Assembly: GCA_016195665.1 (NCBI GenBank)
Contig: JACPZD010000024.1
Span: 23,997 to 87,996, forward strand
DNA length: 64,000 bases
Direction of reading: 5' to 3'
DNA from: Gammaproteobacteria bacterium
Lineage (GTDB): Bacteria; Pseudomonadota; Gammaproteobacteria; SURF-13
Under the pieces are notes generated by a model, which searched no databases, was not told the DNA's origin, and saw only the letters and a list, made by a program, of their open reading frames with translations. This document shows positions 757 to 49,841 of this stretch, in pieces (position 1 is the first letter of the stretch; each line of letters starts with the position of its first letter). The position numbers and the translations under genes were made by a program.

Positions 757-1551
757 CTAAATATTATGGATGGAAGATTTTCGATAAGAAAACCATAGGA
801 GCGTCAAACCGGCCACAATCATCGGGACGGACAGCGCTTGCCCCATCGTGAGCCAGCCGAAGGCGAGATAACCCAACTGGGCATCGGGCATGCGCACGAA
901 TTCCACGATAAAACGGAATGCGCCATAGCAAAGTAAAAACAGGCCGGAGACCGCCATCGTAGGGCGCGGTTTGCTGGAGTAGAGCCAAAGGATAACAAAC
1001 AGCACCAGGCCTTCCAAAAAGGCCTGATAAAGCTGCGAAGGATGGCGCGCGAGAGGTCCGCCGTTGGGGAACACCATCGCCCACGGCACGTCGCTCACCT
1101 TGCCCCACAGTTCGCCGTTGATGAAGTTGCCGATGCGCCCCGCGCCAAGACCGATGGGCGCCAGCGGTGCGACAAAATCCGTGACCTCAAAGAAGGTCTT
1201 GCGGTAACGGCGGCCGAAGAGCCACATGGCGATCAGGACGCCCATCAATCCGCCGTGAAACGACATGCCGCCCTGCCAGACCTTGATGATGTTCAGTGGG
1301 GCGTCGAGAAAACCGGGGAGGTCGTAGAACAGCACATAGCCGAGCCTGCCACCCAGCACCGCGCCCAGCGCACTGTAGAAAATTAAATCGCCGATCTGTT
1401 CCGGCATCCAATTCGAACCGGGCCGTTGCGCGCGCCAGCGGCCCAACCACCAGGCGGCGGCGAACCCGACGAGGTACATGAGGCCATACCAGTGGATGCT
1501 GATTGGGCCGAGATGAAGGGCGACAGGATCAATCTGGGGGTAGCGGAGCAT
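757..1551 (-). CDS. lgt: prolipoprotein diacylglyceryl transferase
   Basis: 264-aa ORF; N-terminus ...[23 protein letters not shown] and the G-rich signature match Lgt. Confidence 0.9.
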
Positions 1552-1600
1552 GCCGCAATTATAGACTAGCAGGCAGTCGAATAACAGCCTGTCGGCGATA

Positions 1601-1637
1601 CATGAAAGTCCCCTCCCCGTACGGGGAGGGGTATTTT
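1601..1637. terminator. GC-rich hairpin CCCCTCCCCG-TA-CGGGGAGGGG followed by TATTTT
   Basis: Perfect 10-bp inverted repeat immediately after the stop of the 494-aa gene, between convergent or tandem minus-strand genes. Confidence 0.4.
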
Positions 1638-1640
1638 CGA

Positions 1641-3125
1641 TCAGCTTTTGAGCATACCGCGCAGTATCGCTCGGTACTGTTTGAGGGCGCGCTCCTGGGT
1701 GGTGAGCAAACTCTCGAAGCTGCGTTCGATGGCCGCGGTCACGACCTTATCCAGACTCTTGAGATCGGCAGGCGGTTTGGGCGTGTCGTCAAGGCCTTGG
1801 TGTTTGCCGCGCATGCCGCTCAAGATCTCGCCGAGGATGAGGTCTTCAATGGGACCCACCTGCGGTAGAAAATCGCCGTCATCGGGAATCTTCTCGAGCT
1901 TGAGACGAATATCCAGCGGGATGCGGTCAATAATGAAGCGGTAAATGGTGCATTGCGGAGCATAGCGGCCTAACACGTCGCGCGCCTGGAGGCCGAGATG
2001 AATCGGCTTGAGTTCCAGAACTTCCCATATCTTCGGGTGCCACAGGATGCCCCAGCACAAGGCATTCAACATGCAACTCTGCAACTTGGGCGGGGCGAGC
2101 CACACCGCGAGATTGAGGTAATAGGCCTCGATATATTTCAGTGCATTGAGTCCTTGCGCCGTTTGAGGGTAGCCCCATAGATTGATGTTGAAGAAGTGAT
2201 GCCAGGTGGAGTCGGTGACGATGCGGCCCAAGTCCACCCTATGCCCGTCATAGGCGGCGGCGACCGCCACGGTGCGGCCGACGTCGGCATCCGGCGACAG
2301 GATGCGCCCCCAGGCGATGAGTTCGGGCTTGGCCTGGAAGCCGTTTTTGCTGGGCCACTCGGCCGCCGGGAAGCTGCCCGGCAGAATCACCTCGCCTTCG
2401 TGCTGGTGATCGGGGAAGATTTTTATCGGCCCCCACTGGCTGCAAAACAACGGGTGAGGGTAACGCTTCCACCAACTATAGGACCACGGGAATCCCGCGG
2501 GATAGGTTTTCAGCGACAAGGGTTGCGGGGTGTCGTCGGACTGGTCATCGAATTGAAAACCGGGCGTCGGCCCTTCGCGCAGGGTGTTGTTCCAGAAGGG
2601 CTGAACGGCGTCGGGCGCCGGCCACTGGCGTATCTTGCCGGCGCGCGGGATCTGTTGGCCGATGGCCTGTCCCAGATTGGCGTGATCGCCGGTCATGAAG
2701 ATGCCGCCGCCCTGGTTCATGAAATTATTCAGCGCGGTGATTTCGGCGGCGGTCAATACATTGCCGGAACCTACTCCGAAGAACCAGATCTGGTCGTAGT
2801 TGGCGCTGATATTCAACTGGTCGAGGCGGCTGTTGGGCTGCGATCTCAGCTTGAAGGTCACGTCAAAATTGACCCAGTACCAGGGATCGGACTTCAGCAC
2901 CTGCTTGACCTTGCCGAGATCAAAAGCTGGCGTGCTGCCGGGCGTGAAGGGGTTGGGGAGCGGGTCGGTGAGTGTGACGCCGCTGTCGGAATAAAACAGA
3001 ATGCGCACCTTGCATGGCCTCGGCCGCCACGGCCAGTGTATATAGTCCTCGATTTGCCAACGCGCGCGCAGATCGAGATCGGCGGGGTGCAGTTCGGAAA
3101 CAAGATTCTTGGAGCGTTTAACCAT
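1641..3125 (-). CDS. hypothetical 494-aa protein; a segment (FFGVGSGN...[24 protein letters not shown]) resembles a ThuA/class-I glutamine-amidotransferase-like fold
   Basis: Long ORF with AGGAGG 8 nt upstream of the ATG at 3125; no confident family assignment from sequence alone. Confidence 0.55.
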
Positions 3126-3265
3126 AAGATCCTCCTCATTTCTTGAGCTTGTTGACTGAAGAGACCTCTGAAAAACTCAGGGCCTTGAAGACCTCTGCCG
3201 GGCGGTGATCCCGGCGGGGGGAATTACTACTGCCTTTCCATCCTACACCCAACTATCGGTGCTAG

Positions 3266-4471
3266 CTACCCTAGATAGACGCGAGTAAAAAAGGCATTGA
3301 GGTAGCGGGTTTCGGGGATGGCGGGGTGGACGGGGTGATCGGGGCCTTGCTGGCCCTGTTCGAGGATTTGCAGGTTGCGGTCTACATGACGGCTGGTCTG
3401 CAACAGCACGTCTTGCAGAGCGTTGGATTCAAGGTGGTAGGAACAGGAGGCTGAAATCAGAATGCCGTCCTTCGCCAACACTTGCATGGCCATTTGGTTG
3501 AGTTGGTGATAAGCCTGCAAGCCCTGCTTGAGGTCTTTTTTGCGTTTGATGAAGGCTGGCGGATCGAGTATCACGACATCGAATTTTTGGCGCTCGGCGC
3601 GCAGTGATTTGAGCGCGTCGAAGGCATCGGCCTGTATGCCCGTGACGCGCTCCGTGACGCCATTGAGCGCGGCATTGTGGCGGAGTTGAGCTAGGGCGCT
3701 CTGGGAGGAATCCACGCACAGCACCTCGCTCGCTCCCGCCGCTGCGGCCTGCACGCCCCAGCCACCGAGATAGCTGAAAACATCCAACACGCGCCGGTCT
3801 TTTACATAGTGCTGCATGCGTGCACGATTCATGCGGTGGTCGTAAAACCAGCCGGTTTTTTGTCCGGTCAATACCGGGACGTCGAACACTACGCCGTTTT
3901 CTTCCAGCCTGACCCACTCGGGGGTTTCACCCAGTACCGTTTCAACATACTTTGGCAAGCCTTCCAGAGCGCGACTGGAAGTATCGTTGCGCAGAACGAT
4001 GGCGCGGGGCTTGATGACTTTTTGCAGAGCGGCGACCACCTCTATTTTGACGCGCTCCATGCCCGCGGTGGTGAGTTGCACGACCAGTACATCGCCGTAG
4101 CGGTCCACCACCAGGCCCGGCAGGGCATCGCCCTCGCCGAACACCAGGCGATAATAAGGCTTGTCGAACAACCGTTCGCGCAGTGACAGTGCGATATTGA
4201 GGCGGTGCACCAGCAGCGACTGATCGAGCACGTAGTGCGGGTCACGGCTCACCAACCGCGCGCAGATGAGCGAGTGCGGATTGGCATAGCCGGTGCCGAG
4301 CACGGCGCCATTACTCGCCTCGATGCTGACAAGCTGGCCGGGTTCGAAACCCGTCAGCGGCGTGTGCGCGACGTCCACCTCGTTACTGAATACCCACAGA
4401 TGACCGGTGTGCAGGCGGCGCTCTTCTTTCTTTTTCAGACGCAACGGCGCGAGGGTTTTTGGAGTGCTCAT
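3266..4471 (-). CDS. rlmI: 23S rRNA m5C1962 methyltransferase, class I SAM-dependent (RlmI family)
   Basis: 401 aa; N-terminal PUA-like region (LRLKKKEERRLHTGHLWVF) and C-terminal methyltransferase fold (VLDVFSYLGGWG...DVVILDPP) collinear with E. coli RlmI. Confidence 0.8.
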   Translation of the reverse strand: MSTPKTLAPLRLKKKEERRLHTGHLWVFSNEVDVAHTPLTGFEPGQLVSIEASNGAVLGTGYANPHSLICARLVSRDPHYVLDQSLLVHRLNIALSLRERLFDKPYYRLVFGEGDALPGLVVDRYGDVLVVQLTTAGMERVKIEVVAALQKVIKPRAIVLRNDTSSRALEGLPKYVETVLGETPEWVRLEENGVVFDVPVLTGQKTGWFYDHRMNRARMQHYVKDRRVLDVFSYLGGWGVQAAAAGASEVLCVDSSQSALAQLRHNAALNGVTERVTGIQADAFDALKSLRAERQKFDVVILDPPAFIKRKKDLKQGLQAYHQLNQMAMQVLAKDGILISASCSYHLESNALQDVLLQTSRHVDRNLQILEQGQQGPDHPVHPAIPETRYLNAFFTRVYLG

Positions 4472-4494
4472 TTAAGTGATCTCTGAAAAATATA

Positions 4495-4582
4495 TCGCCA
4501 ACCGCCAAGACGCCAAGGTCGCCGAGAAAAAAGATTTGAATGGTAAGCAAGAAATCTTGGCGGTCTTGGCGCCTTGGCGGTT
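4495..4582. repeat. hairpin repeat family D (CCGCCAAGACGCCAAGG ... CTTGGCGCCTTGGCGG around an AT-rich loop), copy 1
   Basis: Long imperfect palindrome; a second copy at 33208..33288 has about 80 percent identity and the same architecture. Confidence 0.6.
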
Positions 4583-4602
4583 CAACATGACTCAGGATTT
4601 CC

Positions 4603-6072
4603 TTAATAACGCGACGGGCGCGGCCAGGTAATCGGCTGATAGCCCGTGCAGTGTCTTGCGTAGAGGGTGCGCAGCACGGCGCCGTCGGGCGCATAGGCGG
4701 TCACCGGCGGGAGCAGCACGCAATGGGTGAAGGCGCGCAGTAATTCCGGCGGCGGTTCGGTGGAGGTACTTATGTACGCGCCATTACGCCCCGCCTCGCG
4801 TTCGATGCCGGGCCATAGATCGTGTTGATTGTAACGGCGCGTGGCGTTGCCGGTGATGTAAACAGGCATCGGGGTTAGCCAGTAAAAGGCCAGTTCGCCC
4901 GCTAGAGTATACGAATCGGTAAGAATAAATTCGATGGGCTTGCCCGCCTCCTCTAGGGCGATCTGCACTGTCGCCACCGGCGCCTGCCAGGCGCGCATTT
5001 TACGAAACGGGTCCTGCTGACTTGCCAAGCCAAAGCTATAGGGAAAATGGCCGATCGCGATCATCGTCAGCGACATGAACACCCCGACGTAAACAAACGC
5101 CCGCTTCACGCGCGCGAGATTGGGTAGCTGTCCCGCGAACAGAATCAGAAATCCGATATAACCCGGCGCCGCCCAGTTGAGTTGAACCTTGGCGCTGAAC
5201 GCCTTGATTAAAAAAAATCCTAACAGGAACAGCGACGAATACCACAAGAAGCGTTGCTGCTCGGATGCAGGCTTGCGCCATAACACGCTGGCCGCCGCCA
5301 ACACCACCAGCGGCGACAAGGTAAAAATTTGAGTCAGTGAAAAATCCAGCAGGCTGTTCAGCGACCATGTGTCATGCGCGACATGACCCAGCTCGTGACG
5401 AAACATGACCCAATCGTGCTGAGCGTTCCAGAGGACCACCGGGCTGAACAGGACCAGGGCCAGCAGCGCCGCCAGCCACGGATGGGGGGTCTTGAGTTGC
5501 TCGCGGCCGGCGCGGGTGAGCAGCAGCCACCCCCCAACAAAAACAGGCAGCAAGACTATGCTGAGCTTGGTCAGCCCTCCGAGGCCCGCCGCCGCGCCGA
5601 ACTCATACCACGCAAGTGACCGGCCGCGAAACAGCGCACGCCACGCGGCCCACAGACCCCATGTCCACAGCAGCAACAACAGGATGTCGGTGGTCATCAC
5701 CGATCCGAGAGTGAAGAACAGCGGCGTGGTGAGCCCCAACAGCAGCACCCACCCGCTCGCCGCGCGGCTGTTCCACACTTGTTGTGCAAAGTAGAACAAC
5801 AGAGCAAGGAAACCGCTGTAGGCCAACCAGGCGGGGAGGCGGGCTTGCCAGGCGCCGTGGCCGAATAGGGTTTCGGATAATGCAATCAGCCAAGCGACCA
5901 GCGGGCCCTTGGAATAATAAGACCAGTCAAGCTGGCGTGACCATTCCCAGTACTGGGCCTCATCGAAGTGCAGCTCCAGACCTGCGCTCTGCATCAGCAC
6001 GGCCTTGAGGAGCGGCAGGCTGAGTAAAAAAACCGGCAGGGCGAGGATGGCGCCTCTCTTGCCGAGCATCAT
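4603..6072 (-). CDS. glycosyltransferase family 39 (ArnT/PMT-like) polytopic membrane protein
   Basis: Real start is MMLGKRGAIL at 6072, overlapping the upstream stop as ATGA; the 678-aa track ORF is an artefactual N-extension. Motif DEAQYWEWSRQLDWSYYSKGP and more than 10 predicted TM segments. Confidence 0.8.
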   Translation of the reverse strand: MMLGKRGAILALPVFLLSLPLLKAVLMQSAGLELHFDEAQYWEWSRQLDWSYYSKGPLVAWLIALSETLFGHGAWQARLPAWLAYSGFLALLFYFAQQVWNSRAASGWVLLLGLTTPLFFTLGSVMTTDILLLLLWTWGLWAAWRALFRGRSLAWYEFGAAAGLGGLTKLSIVLLPVFVGGWLLLTRAGREQLKTPHPWLAALLALVLFSPVVLWNAQHDWVMFRHELGHVAHDTWSLNSLLDFSLTQIFTLSPLVVLAAASVLWRKPASEQQRFLWYSSLFLLGFFLIKAFSAKVQLNWAAPGYIGFLILFAGQLPNLARVKRAFVYVGVFMSLTMIAIGHFPYSFGLASQQDPFRKMRAWQAPVATVQIALEEAGKPIEFILTDSYTLAGELAFYWLTPMPVYITGNATRRYNQHDLWPGIEREAGRNGAYISTSTEPPPELLRAFTHCVLLPPVTAYAPDGAVLRTLYARHCTGYQPITWPRPSRY

Positions 6073-7085
6073 GCCGAATGCTTCCAGCCCGCCTCGGCTG
6101 ATTCCTCCGGACTTTCGGGGTTGCGCATGATATATGAGCGGGCCTGGCCCGATTCGAAATAGGTGCGGGCAATCAGTTCGCTTAACACACCGGTGGTGAG
6201 AAACTGCACGGCCATCACAATGAGCAATACGCTTATCATCAACAATGGACGAGTGCCGATGTTCTCCCCGAAAAAGATCTTGAGAATGAATAGATAACTC
6301 ATGCCGATGAAACCGATGACGCCGAACGCGAGTGCTATACCGCCGAAGTAGTGACCGGGGCGCGCGCGGAAGCGGATGAAGAAGTACACTGAAAGTAGGT
6401 CCATAATCACGCGGAAGGTGCGCGAGAGACCGTATTTGGAGACGCCGAATTGACGCGGCGAATGAGCGACGACTTCCTCCTTGATGCGCGAGGTTGCCGT
6501 GTGCGCGGCCATCCAGGCCGGGATGAAGCGGTGCATCTCGCCGTACAGGCGGACGTTCTTGATGACCTGCGCGCGATATACCTTGAGGCTGCACCCGTAA
6601 TCGTGCAGGCGCACCTCGGTCATCCGTCCGATCAGCCAATTGGCGATGCGCGAGGGAATGGTGCGCAGCCAGAGGCTGTCTTTGCGGTCTTTGCGCCAGC
6701 CGACCAGCAGATCGAGATCTTCGTCCAGCAGGCGCTGCACCATGCGCGGGATGTCGGCCGGGTCGTTTTGCAGGTCGCCGTCCAGCGTGACGATCACGTC
6801 GCCGCGCGCCGCATCAATGCCCGCCTGCATGGCAGCGGTCTGACCGAAGTTGCGTTGCAGAGTTATGCTGCGTACATGTCCGCCATATTGGGCGATGCCC
6901 TGCCGCATCACTCGTTCCGTGTCGTCTGTGCTGCCGTCACTGACCAGAATCAACTCCCACGGATGGCGATAACCGGCCAGTACCTCGTGCACGCGCGCGA
7001 GCAGCGGCGCGACGCTCTCCGCCTCGTTGTACAGAGGCACGACGAGCGAGACGCGGTGCGCGGTCAACTCAAGGGAAGTGTTCAT
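6069..7085 (-). CDS. GT2 polyprenol-phosphate sugar synthase (ArnC/GtrB-like)
   Basis: 338 aa; VSLVVPLYNE...ILVSDGSTD...TLDGDLQND cytoplasmic GT2 catalytic motifs plus two C-terminal TM helices, as in ArnC/DPM synthases. Confidence 0.85.
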   Translation of the reverse strand: MNTSLELTAHRVSLVVPLYNEAESVAPLLARVHEVLAGYRHPWELILVSDGSTDDTERVMRQGIAQYGGHVRSITLQRNFGQTAAMQAGIDAARGDVIVTLDGDLQNDPADIPRMVQRLLDEDLDLLVGWRKDRKDSLWLRTIPSRIANWLIGRMTEVRLHDYGCSLKVYRAQVIKNVRLYGEMHRFIPAWMAAHTATSRIKEEVVAHSPRQFGVSKYGLSRTFRVIMDLLSVYFFIRFRARPGHYFGGIALAFGVIGFIGMSYLFILKIFFGENIGTRPLLMISVLLIVMAVQFLTTGVLSELIARTYFESGQARSYIMRNPESPEESAEAGWKHSA

Positions 7086-7651
7086 GACGATAGCTGAGAG
7101 CGGGCCCGAATGCGGCGCATAAAATCAGAATATTGTACGCCGATGAGGGCGGCAAGGTAAGCCAGCAGGGTTCCGATCACGGCGCCGGTCAACACCTGAC
7201 TCGGATAGTGCTTGCCGAGATAGACACGGGAGATCGTGACTAATAGAGCGATGCTGAACAGCGTCAGCGCCCATCTGCGCGAACGGGTCATGAAACTCAT
7301 GAAGGTGGCTACCGCAAAAAAATTGAGCGCGTGGTTGGAAGGGATGCCGTTCAACTGAGATCCGCAGCGCCCGTTGGGCAGCCGCAGCAACTCAGCGATG
7401 ACATAGCACGGGCGCGGTTGCGCCCAGAGGTGTTTGGCCAGATTGCCAATCGCATCGCCGACGATGACCAGAGCAAGCAACGCCAGCCACAGCCGCACTC
7501 CATCCCGACCATACTGTTTTATGCTTAGCGCGAGCATAACGGCCAGCAGCGGAAAGGCGAAGGTGTTGCGGTCGGAAAGCCAGGAAAACAGGACATCATT
7601 CCAAGGATGCGCCCAGGACTGGTTGATCCAGACGAGCAGCGCCTCATCCAT
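7082..7651 (-). CDS. PAP2-family membrane phosphatase (variant motifs)
   Basis: 189 aa; KHLWAQPRP, IPSNH and SRVYLGKHYPSQ correspond to PAP2 motifs 1-3 with substitutions; 4-nt overlap with the upstream gene. Confidence 0.7.
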   Translation of the reverse strand: MDEALLVWINQSWAHPWNDVLFSWLSDRNTFAFPLLAVMLALSIKQYGRDGVRLWLALLALVIVGDAIGNLAKHLWAQPRPCYVIAELLRLPNGRCGSQLNGIPSNHALNFFAVATFMSFMTRSRRWALTLFSIALLVTISRVYLGKHYPSQVLTGAVIGTLLAYLAALIGVQYSDFMRRIRARSQLSS

Positions 7652-8627
7652 GTTGGGCAGGTCGTGAAAGCAATAGACTCAACGCACCGCCCAGCAGCGT
7701 GGTGGCCAGCAAGAATAAGTGCAGGTTGACAGCGGCCTTGAAGGCGGCCACGGCCGGTGCGCCGAACGGCAGTAAGGCCGCCACCACGCCCGCCTCGTAG
7801 GTGCCGGCGCCCGCGAAGGCGTGGATGGGCAGCACGCTGGTCACATCGCCGCCAATCACGCCGAGCCAGGCGGCGGCGAACGGGATCTCGATAAACAATC
7901 GCAACACCCAGACAAACACGCCCAGCTTGACGACCCAGTTGATGGCGGTCCACAGCCAGGCGCGCCAGAAGGCGCTGTGGCTGTATGGCAGGCTGGTTAA
8001 AATCTTGTGCAGCAGTCTGCGCGGACGGCCGCCCGGATGGGCGTTCATATAGTTGAGTAGCTTTGCATTAGCCAGAAACAGCAGATACGGCACGCTCAGC
8101 CATAGCAGGCACGCAGCGCCGGCATACGTCCAGGGCCGAAGAGTAATCCCCAGCGCGAGCAGCACCAGGGTGTGCAAGTCCAGCACCCGAAACCATAGCA
8201 GTGCGGGGGTGGAACGCATCAGCGGCACGTCGAAGTAGCGCTTCATGAGTATGGGGAAGGAAACCTCTCCGGTCCGCATCGGGAGCAGATTATTAAAAAA
8301 ATTATGCAGCAGCATGAGCTTGAGACAGGCCGCGAACGCCCCCCGCATTTCATCGCGGAAATAGTCATACAGACGCATGGCCCTGACCCAGTAAGTAAAA
8401 AACGTCAGTATAATAGCCAAGAATAATAGACTATAGGGCAAGGCCCGCCAGGGAGCGAGCAAATTCCGCCAACCGAAATAGAATTCGATCAGCGCCACGA
8501 AGGCGATGAAGAGAGCGATGCCTGTGAGATATGATAGCTTCACGAGGTAGTTTGGCGGGCTGGTTGGCGATGAGGGTGCTGACTCAGTGTAGGTGGCGCG
8601 AGCGCGCAGCGCAACCCTTTCTCCCAT
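7644..8627 (-). CDS. UPF0104 / lysyl-PG-synthase transmembrane-domain (flippase-like) membrane protein
   Basis: Polytopic membrane ORF (LSYLTGIALFIAFVALIEFYFGWRNL...). Start uncertain: alternatives are ATG at 8627 or GTG at 8541; the track ORF extends to 8687. Confidence 0.6.
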   Translation of the reverse strand: MGERVALRARATYTESAPSSPTSPPNYLVKLSYLTGIALFIAFVALIEFYFGWRNLLAPWRALPYSLLFLAIILTFFTYWVRAMRLYDYFRDEMRGAFAACLKLMLLHNFFNNLLPMRTGEVSFPILMKRYFDVPLMRSTPALLWFRVLDLHTLVLLALGITLRPWTYAGAACLLWLSVPYLLFLANAKLLNYMNAHPGGRPRRLLHKILTSLPYSHSAFWRAWLWTAINWVVKLGVFVWVLRLFIEIPFAAAWLGVIGGDVTSVLPIHAFAGAGTYEAGVVAALLPFGAPAVAAFKAAVNLHLFLLATTLLGGALSLLLSRPAQHG

Positions 8628-8657
8628 TCTACGAGGAAGATCATCAAGCAAAAACAA

Positions 8658-8726
8658 TTTACCGCAGAGGGCGCGGAGCTGAACCAAGTCTTTTTGAACT
8701 TATCTCTCCGCGCCCTCCGCGGTGAA
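8658..8726. repeat. hairpin repeat family B (TTCACCGCAGAGGGCGCGGAGGAG ... CTCCGCG.CCTC.GCGGTGAA), copy 1
   Basis: About 22-bp inverted arms around a 25-30-nt loop; four copies in the window (also 30788..30860, 42089..42158, 56494..56552). Confidence 0.7.
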
Positions 8727-8727
8727 T

Positions 8728-10356
8728 ATGGTTTTATCCGAAATGGACTCTAGGGCCCGCGACATGAACAGCCTCACTCGCTCCAACATAGGGCTTTACA
8801 CCCTGTTCGCCGCCTGTGTGCTGGCCGGTTTTTTTCTCAATATCCATGCGGTGCCGCTGTTCGATCTGGATGAGGGCGCCTTCAGCGAGGCCACCCGCGA
8901 GATGTTCGTGCGCGGCGATTTTATTTCCCCCTACCTGAATGGTGAGCCGCGTTACGACAAACCGGTGCTGATCCACTGGCTGCAGGCCGCGAGCGTCTGG
9001 AGCTTGGGGCTTAATGAATTGGCGTTGCGGTTACCCTCGGCCTTGGCGGCCGCGTTGTGGAGCTGGCTGATCTTTCTTTTCACAAAGCGGTACACGACCA
9101 CCGCCACGGCCTTGTATGCCGCCATCATCACGGCCAGCAGCTTGCAGGTCTCGCTCATCGCCAAGGCCGCCATCGCGGACGCCCTATTGAATCTGTTTCT
9201 CAGCGGTGCACTGTTTAGTATTTATCTTTTCTATCAGTCACGCGAACTGAGATATGTCTATCTCAGCGCCGCAGCCATGGCCCTGGGCTTTCTCACCAAG
9301 GGGCCGGTTGCGGTGGTCATACCACTCGCCGTGAGTCTGTTGTTTTTTTTGAGCAAGGGTGAATTCAGGACTTGGCTCATGGCGCTGTTTAATCTTCGTG
9401 CGATGGCGCTGTTCGGCCTGCTGGCCCTGCCCTGGTACGTCGCGCAGTACCTCAGAGAGGGCGACGCCTTTATCCAGGGGTTTTTTTTCAAGCATAATAT
9501 CGCCCGCTTTGGGGAAACCTTTGAGCAGCATGGCGGCGGGGTTTTTTATTATATCCCGGTCGTCCTCATCGGTCTGTTGCCTTATACCGCACTGCTGTTC
9601 AAAACCTTCACCCGTCTCGGCGAAATCGTCAACGATGATCTAAAACGTTACCTTCTGATATGGTTTTTATTCGTCCTGATATTTTTTTCGTTTTCCGGCA
9701 CCAAGCTGCCTCACTATGCGGTGTACGGCTATCCCGCCGCCATCATCTTGATGGCCATGTACCTGGACACATTGCGCTCCGGATTCATGATCCTTCTGCC
9801 GCCGCTGCTCTTGTTTACCGCCTTGCTGTTTCTCCCCGAACTGATTCATGCCTGGCTCGCGGCGGTGCAGGATGTGTTTATTCGAGACACATTGCGCGAT
9901 GCGGGCGATTACTTTTCATTCCCCTACAGATTATTTTTTTCGCTGGCCATTTTACTCACTGTGTACTTTATGTTTGAAAACCGGTTTAGCAATCCGGGAA
10001 AATTGTTGTGCAGCGGGCTCGTTACCGTGACGGGGGTGGCGCTGTTTGTGCTGCCGATAGCGGGGCAGATTTTGCAATCGCCCATCAAGGAGGCGGCGCT
10101 CATCGCCAAGCGGGCCGATTATGCGGTGGTCATGTGGGGACTGAACGCGCCGAGCTTTAATGTTTACAGCGAACGGCTGGTGGAGCGGCGCGAACCGCGC
10201 CCCGGCGAGATCGCACTGACCAAGTCGAGCTATCTGCCGCGCCTCAAGGGCTACGAGACGCTTTATTACAAAAACGGGATTGCGCTCATCCGTGTGAAGT
10301 CACGAATAGACGTATCAAGCCCGGCAGGGCCAGCATCAAACAGCTCAGCGCAATGA
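8728..10356 (+). CDS. ArnT-like (GT83) undecaprenyl-phosphate-sugar:lipid A glycosyltransferase
   Basis: N-terminal FDLDEGAFSEATREMFVRGDFISP matches the ArnT signature (DE.RYAEI.REM). About 12 TM segments. First ATG at 8728 lies inside the family B hairpin; alternative starts at 8743 or 8764. Confidence 0.8.
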   Translation: MVLSEMDSRARDMNSLTRSNIGLYTLFAACVLAGFFLNIHAVPLFDLDEGAFSEATREMFVRGDFISPYLNGEPRYDKPVLIHWLQAASVWSLGLNELALRLPSALAAALWSWLIFLFTKRYTTTATALYAAIITASSLQVSLIAKAAIADALLNLFLSGALFSIYLFYQSRELRYVYLSAAAMALGFLTKGPVAVVIPLAVSLLFFLSKGEFRTWLMALFNLRAMALFGLLALPWYVAQYLREGDAFIQGFFFKHNIARFGETFEQHGGGVFYYIPVVLIGLLPYTALLFKTFTRLGEIVNDDLKRYLLIWFLFVLIFFSFSGTKLPHYAVYGYPAAIILMAMYLDTLRSGFMILLPPLLLFTALLFLPELIHAWLAAVQDVFIRDTLRDAGDYFSFPYRLFFSLAILLTVYFMFENRFSNPGKLLCSGLVTVTGVALFVLPIAGQILQSPIKEAALIAKRADYAVVMWGLNAPSFNVYSERLVERREPRPGEIALTKSSYLPRLKGYETLYYKNGIALIRVKSRIDVSSPAGPASNSSAQ

Positions 10357-11062
10357 CGCGCTGCAATACTTGTGTATCCGCATAACTGGTCACCGGCCAC
10401 AGCAGCAGATACAGCGCCGCCAAGGCGAGCACCGCTGCGATCAGGCGCTGCGTGGCGATCTCCATGCCCCGCGGCCAGCGGCGCGCAAGCTCTATCGCCC
10501 ACACCGCGCTCATCCAGCCGAGCAGCGCCCCGCCCAGTACGTCGAGCGGCCAATGCACGCCCACCATGATGCGCGATAGCCCGACGGCGGCGGCGATGAG
10601 CAACAGGCCCGCCCCTAGCCATCCATTCTTAAAACCGAGTGCGACCACCCCCGCCCAGGCGAAGATAGTAGCCGTGTGGCCGGAGGGAAAGGCCGTGGCC
10701 TTGAGGGCGGGGCCGATGAGATGAAAGCTCTCGGGTGACAACACGGCCGGCGGACGTGCAACGCCGAACGCGAGTTTGAGGCCGACCACCAGCACGGTAC
10801 TGAGTAGACCGGCAATCATGGCTGCCCAGAGGATGTCCGGGCGCCGGCCCGCCAGCGGCAGCAGTAAGATCATGGCAATCCAGCCGTCACCCAGCATCGT
10901 CATGGCCGCCCACACAACATCGTCGGCGAACAGGCCCTGTTTATTAATCCACAGAAACAAGGTGCGATTGCTGCCGGTGATAACTATGGCCGCCATCGCG
11001 AGAACACCGGCGAGCGGCACCAGCCAGCGCCACGGGTTAGCAGGCCAAGCTGATGGACTCAT
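10286..11062 (-). CDS. PAP2-family phosphatase (canonical motifs)
   Basis: 258 aa; KLAFGVARPP, PSGHTA, SRIMVGVHWPLD are the three PAP2 motifs; 71-nt convergent overlap with the ArnT-like gene. Confidence 0.8.
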   Translation of the reverse strand: MSPSAWPANPWRWLVPLAGVLAMAAIVITGSNRTLFLWINKQGLFADDVVWAAMTMLGDGWIAMILLLPLAGRRPDILWAAMIAGLLSTVLVVGLKLAFGVARPPAVLSPESFHLIGPALKATAFPSGHTATIFAWAGVVALGFKNGWLGAGLLLIAAAVGLSRIMVGVHWPLDVLGGALLGWMSAVWAIELARRWPRGMEIATQRLIAAVLALAALYLLLWPVTSYADTQVLQRVIALSCLMLALPGLIRLFVTSHG

Positions 11063-11746
11063 GCCGGCTTTTCGTCCGCAAACACCAGACGTACTTGAGT
11101 CCCCTTGCCGCGGCTGCTGCGCAGATGGATGCGCCAGTTGTAGCGGTCGCAGATGCGCTTGACCAGGGGCAAGCCCATGCCTGCGCCGCCCGGGACGCCG
11201 GCGGTATTGCCGCCGCGAAAGTGGGGCTCGAATACATGCGGCAAGTCGGCGGAGGTAATCCCTACGCCCGTGTCTTCAATACTTATGCTGTCGGCGTCCA
11301 ATTGCACGTTCACCGCGCCGCACCCGCCGGGTGAGCGGATCGTACACCAGATCGGCCACCTGGATGATCGCCGAACCGGGAGTTGCCCCGCGCCGCGTCA
11401 GGGCCTGCAGGCGCGCCTCGATTTCCTGCAACGCAAAGGGTTTGACCACATAGTCATCCGCCCCGCTGTTAAATCCGGCGAGCTTTTCCGGCAAGGTGTC
11501 GCGGGCCGTCAGCATCAGCACCGGCGTATTCTTGCGTGCTTCTTGACGCAATTTTTGGCACAGGTCTACGCCGTCCATCCCCGGCAACATGAGATCGAGT
11601 ACAATGGCGTCGTAGTCGTTCACCACCGCCAGGTGCAGGCCGGTGATGCCATCTTCCGCTACGCTGACCATGTGCCCTTTGTCGCTGAAGAAATCCTGCA
11701 GGATGGACGTGATGCCCATATCGTCTTCTATAATCAGGATGCGCAT
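11059..11746 (-). pseudogene. deletion-fused remnant of a PmrA/BasR-type response regulator and PmrB/BasS-type histidine kinase
   Basis: 11276..11746 encodes an intact receiver domain and the first 20 residues or so of the OmpR winged helix (IQVADLVYDPLTRRVRRGERAI) then stops. 11059..11313, in another frame, encodes only the HATPase_c tail (VNVQLDADSISIEDTGVGI...GGAGMGLPLVKRI), closely PmrB-like. Junction around 11290..11313. Confidence 0.7.
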
Positions 11747-11761
11747 AGCCCCCCATCACCT

Positions 11762-11782
11762 GTAGGGCCGGATTCATTCGGC
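11762..11782. repeat. REP-like hairpin family A (GTAGGGCCGAATTCATTCGGCC), copy 1
   Basis: GGCCGRAT / ATTCGGCC inverted repeat; three copies, all between convergent or divergent gene ends (also 13956..13980, 14935..14956). Confidence 0.6.
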
Positions 11783-11826
11783 CAATTCAGTTCATAGTTC
11801 ACCACACAATCAAAGGTTCCGCAAAT

Positions 11827-13950
11827 ATGTCGCACAGCGAATTCACCAACCGCCTGAGCCGAGAAACCAGCCCCTATTTACTGCAACACGCCCACAACCC
11901 CGTGGACTGGTACCCGTGGGGCCCGGAGGCGCTGGAGCGGGCCCGACGCGAGGGCAAGCCGATCCTGCTTTCGATCGGCTATTCGGCCTGTCACTGGTGT
12001 CACGTCATGGCCCACGAATCGTTCGAAGACCCGGCCACCGCCCAGGTCATGAACGAATTGTTCGTCAACATCAAGGTGGACCGGGAGGAACGCCCCGACC
12101 TCGACAAGATCTACCAAACGGCCCACCAACTCCTCACCGGCCAGGGAGGCGGCTGGCCGCTCACCCTGGTGTTGACGCCGGAGGACCAAACGCCATTTTT
12201 CGCGGGCACCTACTTCCCCCGCACCCCCCGTTACGGCATGCCCGCCTTTACCGACCTGTTGCGACGCATCGAGGCCTTTTATCGCACGCGCGGAGGTGAG
12301 ATCAACCGGCAAAACGCGGCCCTGCTCAACGCCCTGCAAAGCGTCAATCCCGCACCTCTCACGGGCGATGTCACCCTCAACGGCGAGCCGCTGGAAATAG
12401 CGCGCCGCCAGTTGGAAAGCAGCTTCGACGCCCGCTACGGCGGCTTCGGCGGCGCGCCCAAGTTTCCCCATCCCCCACACATCGAACGGCTGCTGCGCCA
12501 TTGGTCACACAGCCGTACCGCCTCCAACGCCGATGGTCAGGCATTAGCGATGGCGAGCTTTACCCTGCAAGCGATGGCGAAGGGCGGCATCTACGATCAA
12601 CTGGGCGGCGGCTTCTGCCGCTACGCGGTGGACGAGCAGTGGATGATCCCGCACTTTGAAAAGATGCTCTACGACAACGGCCTGCTACTCGCGCTGTACG
12701 CGCAGGCCTGGGCGGCCACCAATGATCCCCTCTTTAAGCGCATCGCCCTGGAAACCGCGCAATGGGTAATGCGCGAGATGCAATCGCCCGAGGGCGGTTA
12801 TTACTCCAGCCTGGATGCCGACTCCGAGGGTCATGAAGGCAGGTTCTACGTATGGAGCCGGGAAGAAGAGCGCGCCCTGCTGGATGAGCAGGAGTACAGC
12901 GTCTTCGCCCGGCGCTTTGGACTTGACCGGCCTGCGAACTTTGAGAATCGCTGGCATCTGCATGTATTTGCTGATATCGCAGCAGTTTCCCATGAACTGA
13001 AGCTGAGCGAGACGGAGGTTATAAAAATTCTCGATGCCGCGCGCGCAAAATTACTCAAGGCGCGCGAACAGCGCGTGCATCCGGGACGAGATGAAAAGAT
13101 CCTCACCTCCTGGAACGCCCTGATGATTAAGGGCATGGCGGTAGCGGGCCGTCTACTCAACGAACCGGAATTACTCCACTCCGCGGAACGGTCGTTGCAC
13201 TTCATCAAAACCACACTATGGAGTGACGGCCGGCTGCTCGCCACCTACAAAGACGGCCGCGCGCATCTGATGGCCTATCTGGATGACTATGCCTATCTGC
13301 TTGACGCCGTCCTGGAACTGTTACAGGTGCGCTGGCGAACGGATGATTTGAACTTCGCCGTGCAACTGGCCGAGGTATTGCTGGAGCATTTTAAAGATAA
13401 ATCACAAGGAGGATTTTATTTCACCGCCGACGATCACGAACAACTCATCCACCGCCCCAAACCCCTCACGGACGACGCCACGCCCGCCGGCAACGGCATC
13501 GCCGCCTACGCCCTGAATCGCCTCGGCCATCTGCTGGGCGAGACCCGCTATCTCGACGCCGCCGAGCGCGCACTCAAGGCGGGCTGGGACGACATCACCC
13601 GTGCACCGTATGCCCATGACAGCATGCTGCTTGCCCTGGAAGAGATACTCACTCCGCCACAGATCATCATCCTGCGCGGCGAACCGGCCGACGACGCACA
13701 TGGAAGTGCTAGTGTCGCGGGAGGCAGGACGCCGGGAGCGACGATCCCGGAGTGGCAATCGTTCTGCGCATCGGGTTACGCCCCGCGCCGCCTGTGCTTC
13801 GCCATTCCCGCAAACGAACCCCACCTGCCCGGCGCGCTCGCCCTGCGCGCGCCCAAAGACCGGCCTGTCGCCTATGTCTGCGAGGGTAACGTTTGCAGTG
13901 CGCCGGTGACAGAGTTGGCCGAGCTTGGGCTGCGGCTGGGAGGATCATAG
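11827..13950 (+). CDS. thioredoxin-domain protein, YyaL/DUF255 family with C-terminal six-hairpin glycosidase-like domain
   Basis: 707 aa; N-terminus [47 protein letters not shown] is the family signature. Confidence 0.85.
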
Positions 13951-15332: not shown

Positions 15333-15449
15333 GGGCGGACACGAATAGCTCGGGCAAGATAACAGTAGTTTACGATTCAAGCAACATTACAGTTTAGTGA
15401 CAGTGCGGCTCACAAATTTATTTAGCTTAAGACTCTATTTCATTGAATT

Positions 15450-15472
15450 GTAACATCTCTGCTACAGACTAC
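15450..15472 (+). promoter_or_regulatory. weak Pho-box-like direct repeat (TTGTAAC-ATCT-CTGCTAC) upstream of the metallophosphoesterase gene
   Basis: Two CTG.A.C heptads with a 4-nt spacer, about 40 nt upstream of the ATG at 15505; resemblance to CTGTCAT-N4-CTGTCAT is only partial. Confidence 0.2.
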
Positions 15473-15504
15473 CGTAAGTTCGGGAGCGTCAAGAGGAGCT
15501 CGGT

Positions 15505-16317
15505 ATGACCAGCCCGCTGCACTTTAGAGCCATTTGGATATCCGATGTTCACCTCGGCATCCGCGCCTGCAAGGCGGAATTTCTTCTCGATTTTCTCAAG
15601 CAGACCCAATCCGATTATCTGTATCTGGTCGGCGACGTGATTGATCTCTGGAGCATGAAAACCTTTTGGTACTGGCCCAAACTGCACAATGACGTGGTGC
15701 AGACCATCCTGAACAAGGCCGCCAACGGCGCCAAGGTCATTTATGTCCCCGGTAACCATGATGAATTGTTTCGCGACTACGCGGGCCACACCTTTGGGAA
15801 GGTGCGCATCTGCACCGAGGCGGTACACAAAACGGCTGACGGGCGCAGGCTGCTGGTAATCCACGGCGATGAATTCGATAGTGTAGTGAAATATAGCAAG
15901 TGGCTCGCCAAGCTCGGCAGTGGGATGTACGAATTTCTATTGTTCGCCAACCGCGGCATCAACTTCTTCCGCCGCAAATTCGGTTTCCCTTATTGGTCGC
16001 TTGCCGCCTATCTGAAACATAAGGTGAAAAACGCCGTGAGCTATATCAGCAAGTTCGAAGAGGTCCTGGTGCACGAAGCCAGAAAACGCAAGCTGCACGG
16101 CGTTATTTGCGGGCATATCCATAAAGCGGCGATCGAAGACTTCGACGGCGTTCTGTATTGCAATGACGGCGACTGGGTGGAGAGCTGCACCGCGCTGGTG
16201 GAGCATCCCGACGGCGCCCTGGCGGTGATACGTTGGGCGGAAGAGAGTGTGTTTTTACTTAAGGAAGGAGAGTATGAAAATAGTTCTAGTCAGCGACGCC
16301 TGGTTTCCGCAGATTAA
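15505..16317 (+). CDS. calcineurin-like metallophosphoesterase, LpxH/PlcP-like
   Basis: 270 aa; ISDVHLG...YLVGDVIDLW...VPGNHDE...HGDEFD...GHIH metallophosphatase motifs in LpxH order. Confidence 0.75.
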   Translation: MTSPLHFRAIWISDVHLGIRACKAEFLLDFLKQTQSDYLYLVGDVIDLWSMKTFWYWPKLHNDVVQTILNKAANGAKVIYVPGNHDELFRDYAGHTFGKVRICTEAVHKTADGRRLLVIHGDEFDSVVKYSKWLAKLGSGMYEFLLFANRGINFFRRKFGFPYWSLAAYLKHKVKNAVSYISKFEEVLVHEARKRKLHGVICGHIHKAAIEDFDGVLYCNDGDWVESCTALVEHPDGALAVIRWAEESVFLLKEGEYENSSSQRRLVSAD

Positions 16318-17335
16318 CGGCGTCGTCACGACGCTCTTCAAAACCAAACAAGAGCTTGAAAAGCTCGGCCACCACGTCATCACTATCACGCCGGATCACT
16401 TCAAGACCATTCCCTGTCCAACTTACTCCGAAATCCGGCTTGCCATTGCCCCCTCTAAAAAGGTTCGCGAGTTATTAAAAACCTTCCAAGCGGATGCCGT
16501 ACACATCGCCACTGAAGGCCCGTTAGGTCTGGCGGCGCGCGCCTGGTGTCTAAAACAAAACTTTCCTTTTACCACTTCGTTTCACACCCGCTTTCCGGAA
16601 TATGTGAAGCTGCGTTTTCATATCCCGCTCGCGCTGACCTACGCCTTTCAGCGCTGGTTTCACGGCGCGGCCCAATACACCATGGTGGCGACCGAGGCGC
16701 TCAGACAAGAGTTGACGGAAAAGGGTTTTCCAAATCTGGTGATCTGGTCACGCGGCGTGGATACGGAATTATTCCGCCCACGCGAAAAAAAGTTACTGAC
16801 GTGTCCACGTCCGGTCTTTAGTTACCTTGGGCGCGTCGCGGTCGAAAAAAATATCGAGGCCTTTCTGAAACTCGATCTGCCCGGCACCAAGTACGTTATC
16901 GGCGATGGGCCGGACATGTCAAAGCTGATGCAGCGTTATCCCGAGGTCATTTTTGCCGGTTTCAAGACCGGCGAAGATCTCGCGCTGCACCTTGCGCAGG
17001 CCGATGTGTTCGTCTTTCCCAGTCGCACCGACACCTTCGGTCTGGTGGTGATCGAGGCGCTGGCTTGCGGCGTGCCAGTTGCCGCCTATCCCGTGCGCGG
17101 GCCGGCCGACATCATCGTCAGCGGTGAGTTCGGTTATCTGGATGAGGATTTACAAAACGCTGCGGTTAAGGCTCTGTCACTCGATCACGTAAGTTGCCGC
17201 GCAGCAGCCCTGAAGTACACCTGGGCGGCTTGTACGCAGCAATTTCTCAGCCATCTCAATCATACCCAGCAAGCGCAGGCCAAGGCACAGACCACTATGG
17301 TTGCCACACAAGATCCAACTCGCGTGCAGCCTTGA
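16274..17335 (+). CDS. glycosyltransferase family 4 (GT-B, retaining); overlaps the upstream gene by 44 nt
   Basis: [20 protein letters not shown]... N-terminus and C-terminal EX7E-like region ([22 protein letters not shown]) typical of GT4. Confidence 0.8.
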
Positions 17336-22539: not shown

Positions 22540-22586
22540 TAAAAAAGGGCGATGCGTGTACGACTGCTCGCACACCCATCGCCCCT
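22540..22586 (-). terminator. intrinsic terminator-type expression platform of the glycine riboswitch
   Basis: Minus strand reads GGGCGATGGGTGTGCGAGCAGTCGTACACGCATCGCCC followed by TTTTTTATT, between the aptamers and the gcvT start. Confidence 0.5.
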
Positions 22587-22589
22587 CTG

Positions 22590-22765
22590 TCCTGTTACCT
22601 GAGAGTTTTATCCCCTTCGGTGCCCGGCAACACACATCGAGTCGTATCGCCGGATCTCTCCAGAATTTATATTACCCTGCGGTCCTTTTGCCTGAGCGTT
22701 TCCGGGCGGTTGCGCCTTCGGCGCCCCGTCATGTTTTTCTATGACGGGGGCTCTCCCACAGGGTA
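22590..22765 (-). ncRNA. tandem glycine riboswitch (two aptamers) in the gcvT leader
   Basis: Minus strand: aptamer 1 GGGAGAGCCCC...GGCGCCGAAGGCGCAACC...CTCAGGCAAAAGGACCGCAG; aptamer 2 CTGGAGAGATCC...GCACCGAAGGGGATAA...CTCTCAGGTAACAGGACAG; both match the glycine riboswitch consensus. Confidence 0.85.
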
Positions 22766-22818
22766 AACATCAGCGCCTACTATACTATGGAGGGCCAAGC
22801 TCTTGCCAGTGTAAAAAC

Positions 22819-26513: not shown

Positions 26514-26670
26514 TTGTTGAAAAAGGCCATCCATGGCCTTTTTCAACAACGAAAAGCAAAAAGTGTGATTTTTACTTTTCTTCATTTTCCAAGCATAAAA
26601 AACCGTGCTTGAAAATGCCGGGCCCTCCATGGCCCGACTAGCGGCCTGTTTTTCAACAGGCCGCTAGTCG
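26514..26670. repeat. structured repeat family E (about 155 nt, three hairpins including the perfect palindrome TGTTGAAAAAGGCCATCCATGGCCTTTTTCAACA), copy 1
   Basis: Second copy at 36293..36446 in the same orientation, about 80 percent identity, also in a minus-strand intergenic region. Confidence 0.6.
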
Positions 26671-29919: not shown

Positions 29920-29995
29920 GGCCAGGTAGCTCAGTTGGTAGAGCAGGGGACTGAAAATCCCCGTGTCGGCGGTTCGATTCCGTCCCTGGCCACCA
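29920..29995 (+). tRNA. tRNA-Phe (anticodon GAA)
   Basis: GGCCAGGTAGCTCAGTTGGTAGAGCAGGGGACTGAAAATCCCCGTGTCGGCGGTTCGATTCCGTCCCTGGCCACCA: 7-bp acceptor stem, anticodon loop CTGAAAA, TPsiC GGTTCGATTCC, encoded CCA. Confidence 0.95.
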
Positions 29996-36292: not shown

Positions 36293-36446
36293 TGTTGAAA
36301 AAAGGCCATCCATGGCCTTTTTTCAACTCACAAAGCAAAAAACGCGGTTTTTGCTTTGCTCCATTTTTCAAGCACATAAACCGTGCTTGAAAAATGGCGG
36401 CGCATCCATGCGCCGCACGCAGACTGTTTTTCAACAGCCTGCTAAG
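36293..36446. repeat. structured repeat family E, copy 2
   Basis: TGTTGAAAAAAGGCCATCCATGGCCTTTTTTCAAC ... TTTTTCAAGCACATAAACCGTGCTTGAAAAA ... GGCGCATCCATGCGCC ... CTGTTTTTCAACAG, between the gspN stop and the Yip1 start. Confidence 0.6.
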
Positions 36447-49311: not shown

Positions 49312-49427
49312 CGCCATAAATCTACTGCGCGTCTTTGATGCGGGTGCGTGCGGTGCTCGGAATCCTCATGTACTTCTATGTACACTCCGGTTCCTGCGCT
49401 CCGCCGCCCCCGCCTGAAACCCGCTCG

Positions 49428-49841
49428 CTACGATTTCTGTCGCCCAGATTTGACGCCCTCCGCGGACTCGTCCGCCTTGCTCATCAACAGATCAAAATTA
49501 CGATACGCGTATTTTGGATCGGCACCGACGTTTTCAATGCCCTCGGACGTTAGATCCGCGCCATAGTTAAATGCTCGAAAATACAATTGGGAATGATCCT
49601 TGGCGGATACCAGGCGCGCGCTCACCCTCACCCACGGCTTATAGTCGAATGAGTTTGCGGTAGAGAGGTAACCGACGGCGACATACCACACGTCCAGTAT
49701 TGCGTCGGCATCGGTTCGGATGGCTGAATAGTCAGCCTGATTTTCATTTTTTATCGCCGGCCGCTGGTCGGAAAGATAAACGATCTCGTAATTCTGCTTC
49801 TTTAACTCACGCTGTAGCGCTTGGGCAATTTCGGCGCCCAT
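49428..49841 (-). CDS. hypothetical protein (137 aa, no signal peptide; possibly a gene remnant) in the low-GC islet
   Basis: Only ORF in this stretch with plausible codon usage; a stop codon lies immediately upstream of the ATG. Confidence 0.35.
   Translation of the reverse strand: MGAEIAQALQRELKKQNYEIVYLSDQRPAIKNENQADYSAIRTDADAILDVWYVAVGYLSTANSFDYKPWVRVSARLVSAKDHSQLYFRAFNYGADLTSEGIENVGADPKYAYRNFDLLMSKADESAEGVKSGRQKS

Follow-up and report, generated by a model that had tools for sequence, protein, structure and literature searches.

Introduction

In Enterobacteriaceae the two-component system PmrAB (BasRS), encoded in the pmrCAB operon, regulates eptA and arnBCADTEF; the basRS genes adjoin eptA and not the arn operon. 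Lipid A remodelling clusters that combine LpxE/LpxF-type PAP2 phosphatases with ArnC-like and ArnT-like proteins are also known, examples being flmF2/flmK/lpxE/lpxF in Francisella, rgtF/rgtD in Rhizobium and lgmAB in Bordetella. The locus described here resembles both; it lies at positions 11059-11746 (minus strand) of a 64,000-nt stretch of a gammaproteobacterial genome (contig JACPZD010000024.1, positions 23,997 to 87,996; the whole stretch is called the window below), where an earlier reading made without database searches (the sequence-only reading) had noted what it took to be the debris of a PmrAB/BasRS-type system. The segment is very probably a non-functional pseudogene pair, consisting of what remains of an OmpR-family response regulator and a HisKA-family sensor kinase after one repeat-mediated deletion, in a clade of uncultured Gammaproteobacteria that is repeatedly shedding the system.

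The locus shares with PmrAB/BasRS the pairing of an OmpR-family regulator with a HisKA kinase that carries a two-transmembrane periplasmic sensor, the placement of both in one operon with a lipid-modifying enzyme, and the proximity of ArnT-like and ArnC-like genes. It differs in having a PAP2 phosphatase gene downstream instead of a phosphoethanolamine transferase gene upstream, in not being orthologous, and in that the system here has been deleted. With the known lipid A remodelling clusters it has in common a set of two PAP2, one GT2, two PMT_2 and one LPG_synthase_TM proteins, but the family scores lie far under the equivalog cut-offs. As an event, the window feature is an ordinary deletion pseudogene of a known kind: as in classic gene decay through loss of the DNA between short direct repeats, a single repeat copy is left behind, the repeats are of 6-9 bp and the deletions of 1.27-1.68 kb, and later point lesions pile up (a frameshift in the relative L015). 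What differs from the classic case is recurrence, in that four repeat pairs have been used within one 2-kb operon across sister lineages, although the mechanism is alike.

The remnant genes and the deletion junction

In intact relatives (L003, L006, L013, L014, L138 and L139/L140; at least seven intact loci were sampled) the order is a 226-aa regulator, a 429-aa kinase, a PAP2-family phosphatase and then a convergent ArnT-like gene. The intact regulator has Pfam domains Response_reg (residues 3-113) and Trans_reg_C (148-220), and the intact kinase has HAMP (about 153-205, a weak match), HisKA (214-273) and HATPase_c (324-423); the two genes overlap by 11 nt and are in different frames. Compared with L003, L013, L014 and L139 exactly 1,272 bp are absent from the window, which corresponds to L003[..476] joined to L003[1749..]. 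The sequence-only reading had proposed mapping the junction against intact relatives, and the alignment places it cleanly at 11313-11319, where a single copy of the 7-bp direct repeat GGCGCGG (minus strand) survives; in intact L013, L014 and L139 the repeat stands at both breakpoints, its two copies exactly 1,272 bp apart. This is a single deletion between GGCGCGG copies and has the hallmarks of replication slippage or of microhomology-mediated illegitimate recombination. The single event was thus recognized correctly at the outset, as was the loss of the regulator's DNA-binding domain and the kinase's sensor, HAMP and DHp, and only the estimated size of roughly 1.4 kb has to be revised. The length of the deletion is divisible by 3; the remnants are nevertheless out of frame with each other because the ancestral regulator and kinase genes overlapped in different frames.

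The regulator remnant (11312..11746, minus strand) consists of native codons 1-145 of 226, as defined by Pfam and by the junction. It is the larger part of a 156-aa open reading frame (ORF; 11746..11276, minus strand) in which the receiver domain is whole (Response_reg at residues 3-113, E 3.8e-27) and in which, as read from the translation, D8, D9, D51, T80 and K102 are all kept. The linker and the initial beta-strands of the effector domain are present as well, but Trans_reg_C finds no match in the 156-aa protein, and the region that it occupies in the intact regulator P0002 (residues 148-220) is wholly gone. The closest full-length matches to the stub are P0002 (92% amino-acid identity) and P0003 (89%), both of them 226-aa OmpR-family regulators. 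Comparison of the translation with P0002 and L003 shows that the end of the ORF (11276..11311, minus strand; 11 codons, ERAIGRRQHKY, and a TGA stop) is the regulator frame translating kinase-derived DNA.

The kinase remnant (11059..11313, minus strand) comprises codons 346-429 of 429 and the stop codon, that is, the last 84 codons where some 80 had been estimated. The kinase-frame ORF (11334..11059) matches HATPase_c profile positions 24-107 of 111 (Pfam, E 1e-16), and the remnant aligns with residues 339-426 of the L003 kinase by tblastn. Of the HATPase_c motifs the G1, F and G2 boxes survive, whereas the N box (LGNLIHNAYSY), the DHp/HisKA domain with its phospho-accepting His, HAMP, both transmembrane segments and the periplasmic sensor are gone. 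The sequence-only reading had described the two pieces correctly as a receiver with the start of a winged helix followed by an HATPase tail in another frame, and both Pfam and the intact relatives bear this out, but the gap of about 20 nt that it placed between them does not exist: kinase DNA begins at the junction (11313) and the two remnant ORFs share 38 nt. Of the two parts that mark an OmpR/PhoB regulator, the window protein has the receiver and lacks the winged-helix DNA-binding domain, and the kinase remnant has neither the DHp with its His nor the complete catalytic and ATP-binding domain of a HisKA kinase. Because winged helix, sensor, HAMP, DHp and N box are all lost, the remnant is, judged by its domain content, unable to sense, to autophosphorylate or to bind DNA.

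The locus thus has full-length syntenic orthologues, a junction that can be mapped, losses in essential domains, and reproduction in assemblies, as is characteristic of a pseudogene derived by deletion. The same 156-aa protein occurs in an NCBI metagenome-assembled genome (MAG; MBI3344467.1), and over a 1,701-nt stretch that takes in the region the Logan assemblies of two sequencing runs, SRR12113414 and SRR12113415, agree with the window at 100% identity, with the qualification that both of these assemblies and the NCBI MAG may share their source with the window. Given the pseudogene status, the NCBI product names of both remnants, "response regulator transcription factor" (MBI3344467.1, 156 aa) and "sensor histidine kinase" (MBI3344466.1, 84 aa), mislead. 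No further regulator or kinase homologue is found within the 64-kb window.

The region upstream of the regulator

The intergenic region 11747..11826, which the regulator shares with a divergent DUF255/thioredoxin-like gene, is strongly conserved in alignments of the relatives and holds the regulator's ribosome-binding site (GGGGG). Because this site and the conserved upstream region are kept, the stub is probably still translated, its expression signals apparently being retained. About 20 nt 5' of the regulator start codon (11766-11783) lies a palindrome, GGCCGGATTCATTCGGCC, whose consensus across relatives is GGCCGAATGAATTCGGCC; it is kept in most relatives and duplicated in L013, and could be an operator or a hairpin in the 5' untranslated region. 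A promoter and terminator scan of 8400-12100 gave counts no higher than those in shuffled sequence, with no promoter-like site in the gap between the regulator and the DUF255 gene.

Two of the relatives described below are altered in this region. In L121 a 27-nt tandem duplication (5990-6030) covers the ribosome-binding site and the first six codons of the truncated regulator, and in L129 (5810-6000; likewise in L130) the palindrome 5' of the regulator has been replaced by some 190 nt of inserted sequence that contains several hairpins. The allele with this insertion (L129, L130) is the one whose entire kinase has been lost.

Broken alleles in related lineages

Short alleles were gathered by a PAP2-protein scan of species-representative genomes and from the member lists of 90% protein clusters, and are placed here relative to intact L013 (regulator 6510-7190, kinase 7180-8469). 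On this scale the window deletion runs from 6943 to 8215 (1,272 bp, GGCGCGG; two Logan assemblies). The L015 allele has lost 6949/8333 (1,384 bp) at the 9-bp repeat CGGCGGCGT, and its stub is additionally frameshifted by 1 nt beyond residue 92 (one MAG). The L121-L128 allele has lost 6865/8142 (1,277 bp) at GCGGCG, leaving a 119-aa receiver and an 88-aa HATPase ORF (nine contigs, several projects). The L129-L134 allele has lost 6802/8481 (about 1.68 kb) at the imperfect repeat GCGGAYGA (seven contigs), so that regulator codon 96 is joined in frame to the five final codons of the kinase and the stop/start overlap with PAP2 is kept. The L135-L137 allele has an intact regulator (with R82C) and a kinase broken by a 1-nt deletion in a C-run at codon ~64, together with a 12-nt loss (three sources). 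There are, then, five different lesions among about twelve sampled lineages, and all four deletions have their left end at regulator nt 293-440 and their right end in the last 17% of the operon. A metagenome scan with the receiver stub recovered no orthologous locus (the best match was 61% identical, and generic regulator peptide patterns dominated), and in a literature search neither this locus nor a repeated loss of a comparable system in MAGs was found described.

The window keeps regulator DNA that is missing in L121, and L121 keeps kinase DNA that is missing in the window; because each retains DNA absent in the other, neither deletion can be derived from the other. The same applies to L015 and L121. 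Neighbour-joining trees were built for the left flank, the first 290 nt of the regulator, PAP2 and the ArnT-like gene. The window, L121 and L135, all broken and each differently, cluster in three of the four, and L015 and L129 cluster with intact L014; L003, L004, L013 and L006 fall outside both groups and show no lesion (the L004 contig holds the regulator and a partial kinase only). The L015 flanks (pfkB, DUF255, PAP2) are 93-94% identical to intact L014 as against 84.5-92% to the window; its ArnT-like segment is instead nearer the window (92.9%) than L014 (90.9%). The possibility that the L015 allele arose from the window allele by a further loss of 112 bp, with which the junction sequence taken by itself is compatible, was considered and rejected, since these flanks are nearest L014 and the stub and kinase tail are not specially window-like. 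Within L121 the PAP2 gene (6817-7674) groups with L014 and L015, whereas its left flank, its stub and its ArnT-like gene fall with those of the window and L135, which indicates homologous recombination inside that locus.

From these comparisons the number of independent deletions is put at three at least, and that of independent inactivations at between two and five, the lower bound being two because shared first hits are possible inside each group. One 2-kb regulatory operon has been broken in five ways while its target-like neighbours are conserved, which amounts to a natural experiment on how dispensable a dedicated envelope regulator is; the broken alleles also provide a clean series of microhomology-mediated deletions observed shortly after their occurrence.

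Selection on the neighbouring genes

Ratios of nonsynonymous to synonymous substitution rates (dN/dS) were calculated pairwise between regulator-dead lineages (the window, L121, L129 and, where available, L135). They are 0.23-0.39 for the PAP2 gene of the operon, 0.12-0.21 for the ArnT-like gene, 0.13-0.28 for LPG_synthase_TM, 0.24-0.32 for the second PAP2, 0.14-0.15 for GT2 and 0.16-0.21 for DUF255; the second PMT_2 gene, which extends past the ends of the L121 and L129 loci, does not enter the comparison. All six flanking genes compared are open in the regulator-dead lineages, and for LPG_synthase_TM, the second PAP2 and GT2 this holds in L121 and L129, where the system is dead, at dN/dS 0.13-0.32. 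The ratios indicate that the envelope genes are under purifying selection and still in use without this regulator. Since they stay under such selection in every regulator-dead lineage compared, their expression evidently does not depend on this system alone. The sequence-only reading had supposed that the adjacent glycosylation genes have lost their dedicated regulator, with constitutive or re-wired expression as the outcome; the loss itself is plausible, but a strict dependence of those genes on the lost regulator does not agree with the persisting selection.

Interpretation and alternative explanations

The sequence of events would be as follows. The regulator and kinase genes once shared an operon with the gene for the PAP2 lipid phosphatase, which follows them. 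A single 1,272-bp deletion between GGCGCGG repeats took away the DNA-binding domain of the regulator and the sensor, HAMP, DHp and N box of the kinase. The regulator has presumably become dispensable, or its loss is favoured. The envelope genes would now be expressed independently of it. Only internal deletions would survive, because selection would remove those that extend into the 5' control region or PAP2, and the receiver stub would probably still be made, as the product of a young pseudogene rather than as a selected protein.

A number of observations count against this account or soften it. In receiver codons 1-90 the private changes are 7 synonymous and 8 nonsynonymous in five broken lineages and 11 and 2 in three close intact lineages, a contrast (Fisher p = 0.055) that makes the signal of relaxed selection across lineages borderline. 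In the window lineage the stub shows no clear decay: its private changes number 4 synonymous and 2 nonsynonymous (K10M and R64Q), and the catalytic receiver residues are all intact. Either the window deletion is young or the stub is still weakly constrained. Some of the dN/dS divergence in the cluster may predate loss of the regulator. Expression of the stub and of PAP2 is presumed, and a simple scan of 11747..11826 found no sigma-70 consensus promoter. The window, L121 and L135 (clade A) could share an earlier hit, for example the L135 frameshift, that preceded their deletions. Finally, the view here is one of 64 kb, and a second copy of the system may lie elsewhere in the genome.

The alternative that survives best, though it remains doubtful, accepts the pseudogenes and holds that their loss was adaptive and not neutral, inactivation having fixed the PAP2 and glycosyltransferase genes in a favourable expression state. 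Lesions that end signalling while the 5' control region goes on driving the downstream PAP2 gene would then be favoured, and one in-frame stub does keep the stop/start overlap. Five lesions in about twelve lineages, four deletions that all spare the 5' region and PAP2, purifying selection on the envelope genes, and the presence of two of the alleles each in many samples and several projects all fit such a history. Relaxed selection combined with purifying selection on the flanking genes, however, predicts the same pattern; ascertainment was via shortened regulator proteins only, which biases the left breakpoints; G+C-rich repeats of the CGG type could be a mutational hot spot; and intact alleles are still common in the sample. 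The fuller version of the idea, in which an uncultured freshwater or groundwater gammaproteobacterial clade has in parallel lost an envelope-stress two-component system adaptively and so made an inducible lipid A remodelling fixed, is to be judged slightly less probable again. If the losses were adaptive, they would exemplify regulatory simplification of lipid A remodelling in environmental bacteria, and so run parallel to the known phoPQ and pmrAB mutations of clinical isolates.

Much less probable is that the stub is a selected stand-alone receiver, acting as a phosphate sink, as the sequence-only reading had suggested, or as a dimerization partner that interferes with another OmpR-family regulator. 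Isolated receiver domains fold by themselves, the domain in the window is complete in extent and in its five key residues (D8 to K102), and its ribosome-binding site and upstream region are conserved; the private changes of the window lineage are more often synonymous than nonsynonymous, and the L121 allele keeps a whole 119-aa receiver with zero private amino-acid changes. The cognate kinase, however, is destroyed, and the stub ends at a different point in each lineage (145, 119 or 96 aa), its 96-aa form being cut inside the receiver fold and lacking Y99, K102 and helix 5. In L015 the stub is frameshifted after residue 92, and the L129 and L015 receivers carry the substitutions L37P, D44G and L89P, two of which introduce proline. 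A conserved single-domain regulator among the relatives, which had been named in advance as evidence against decay, is not seen: in the two 90% clusters of the regulator nearly all members have 226 aa, the short ones (156, 123, 115 and 101 aa) are each cut off by a deletion or frameshift of their own, and no relative keeps a short form, free of a kinase remnant, as a conserved gene.

An assembly or sequencing artefact (repeat collapse or a chimeric join) can hardly be entertained, since, even though the junction coincides with a short repeat in DNA rich in G+C, a repeat of 7 bp is far shorter than the k-mer of any assembler, two sequencing runs yield identical Logan assemblies, and analogous but different deletions stand on 9 and 7 independent contigs of relatives.

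Family identity of the two-component system

By sequence the intact pair belongs to the OmpR and HisKA families, but a closer relation to PmrAB, the name under which the locus was first reported, is not borne out. Against the NCBIfam PmrA model NF007928 the intact regulator P0002 scores 154.2 bits (cut-off 330) and against the heavy-metal regulator subfamily model 191 bits (cut-off 279), and the intact L003 kinase scores 86.8 bits against the PmrB model NF008025 (cut-off 314). Among solved structures the regulator is nearest DrrD (149 bits), while BasR, at 127 bits, scores much the same as MtrA and PrrA; for the kinase the nearest is the cytoplasmic domain of QseC (64 bits). Membership in PmrA/PmrB was therefore rejected, as the scores are below cut-off and BasR is not specially close, and a "PmrAB-type" label holds only by analogy of context. 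That context, an operon-like arrangement with PAP2 beside ArnT-like and ArnC-like genes, agrees with the envelope-modification setting that the sequence-only reading had recognized, and by this analogy the ancestral role of the system was likely control of envelope-lipid modification. Neither arnA nor arnB nor arnD is among the cluster genes scanned.

The position of PAP2 after the regulator and kinase is conserved in L003, L013, L014, L138 and L139. Distant PAP2 homologue loci (Massilia, Betaproteobacteria and others) have no adjacent orthologous two-component system, and linkage of the system to PAP2 is for this reason taken to be confined to the present clade, the pair in L008, beside other envelope genes, being the one other case. 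There (1022-6189) a 69%-identical regulator-kinase pair stands directly 5' of genes for a 659-aa Sulfatase-family protein, a GT2 protein and a LAB_N protein, and is by sequence a related two-component system beside a different envelope-lipid gene set. Homologues of 66% identity adjoin SulP transporters; these are probably non-orthologous and were treated as such.

Neighbouring genes and other features of the window

The PAP2-family lipid phosphatase gene (10286..11062, minus strand; 258 aa; Pfam PAP2, E 3.9e-21) is intact and is the third gene of the ancestral operon; its start codon overlaps the stop codon of the kinase remnant (ATGA). Convergent with it is the gene for the ArnT-like glycosyltransferase of GT-C type (8764..10356, plus strand; Pfam PMT_2, with a gene call in L001), which scores 157 bits against the NCBIfam ArnT model, whose cut-off is 567. 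The rest of the envelope-modification cluster consists of four genes on the minus strand (4603..8627), which encode the LPG_synthase_TM protein (8627..7644), the second PAP2 (7651..7082), the ArnC-like GT2 (7085..6069) and the second PMT_2 protein (6072..4603).

In some relatives the kinase stop and the PAP2 start are separated by an element of 220-240 nt with an internal hairpin (L121:6684-6925, L135:7950-8188 and L136:5609-5847), and in L014 by a shorter insert (~160 nt). The 220-240-nt element is absent from the window, L003, L013, L128 and L138, in all of which the two codons overlap. Since partial copies occur elsewhere in the window, at 36354-36445 (85% over 92 nt) and at 26517-26548 (a 32-nt piece of the hairpin), the element resembles a small dispersed intergenic repeat.

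A metallophosphoesterase gene and a GT4 glycosyltransferase gene (window 15349-17302) are absent from L015 and L139 and present in L121, L129 and L135, which by sequence is a presence/absence polymorphism near the locus. Farther along the window are a tandem glycine riboswitch (22577-22768, minus strand) 5' of an ORF that ends at 22635, a tRNA-Phe gene (29920-29995, plus strand), and an Rfam match to the Xanthomonas small RNA sX9 (49368-49441, plus strand; 48 bits, gathering score 44).

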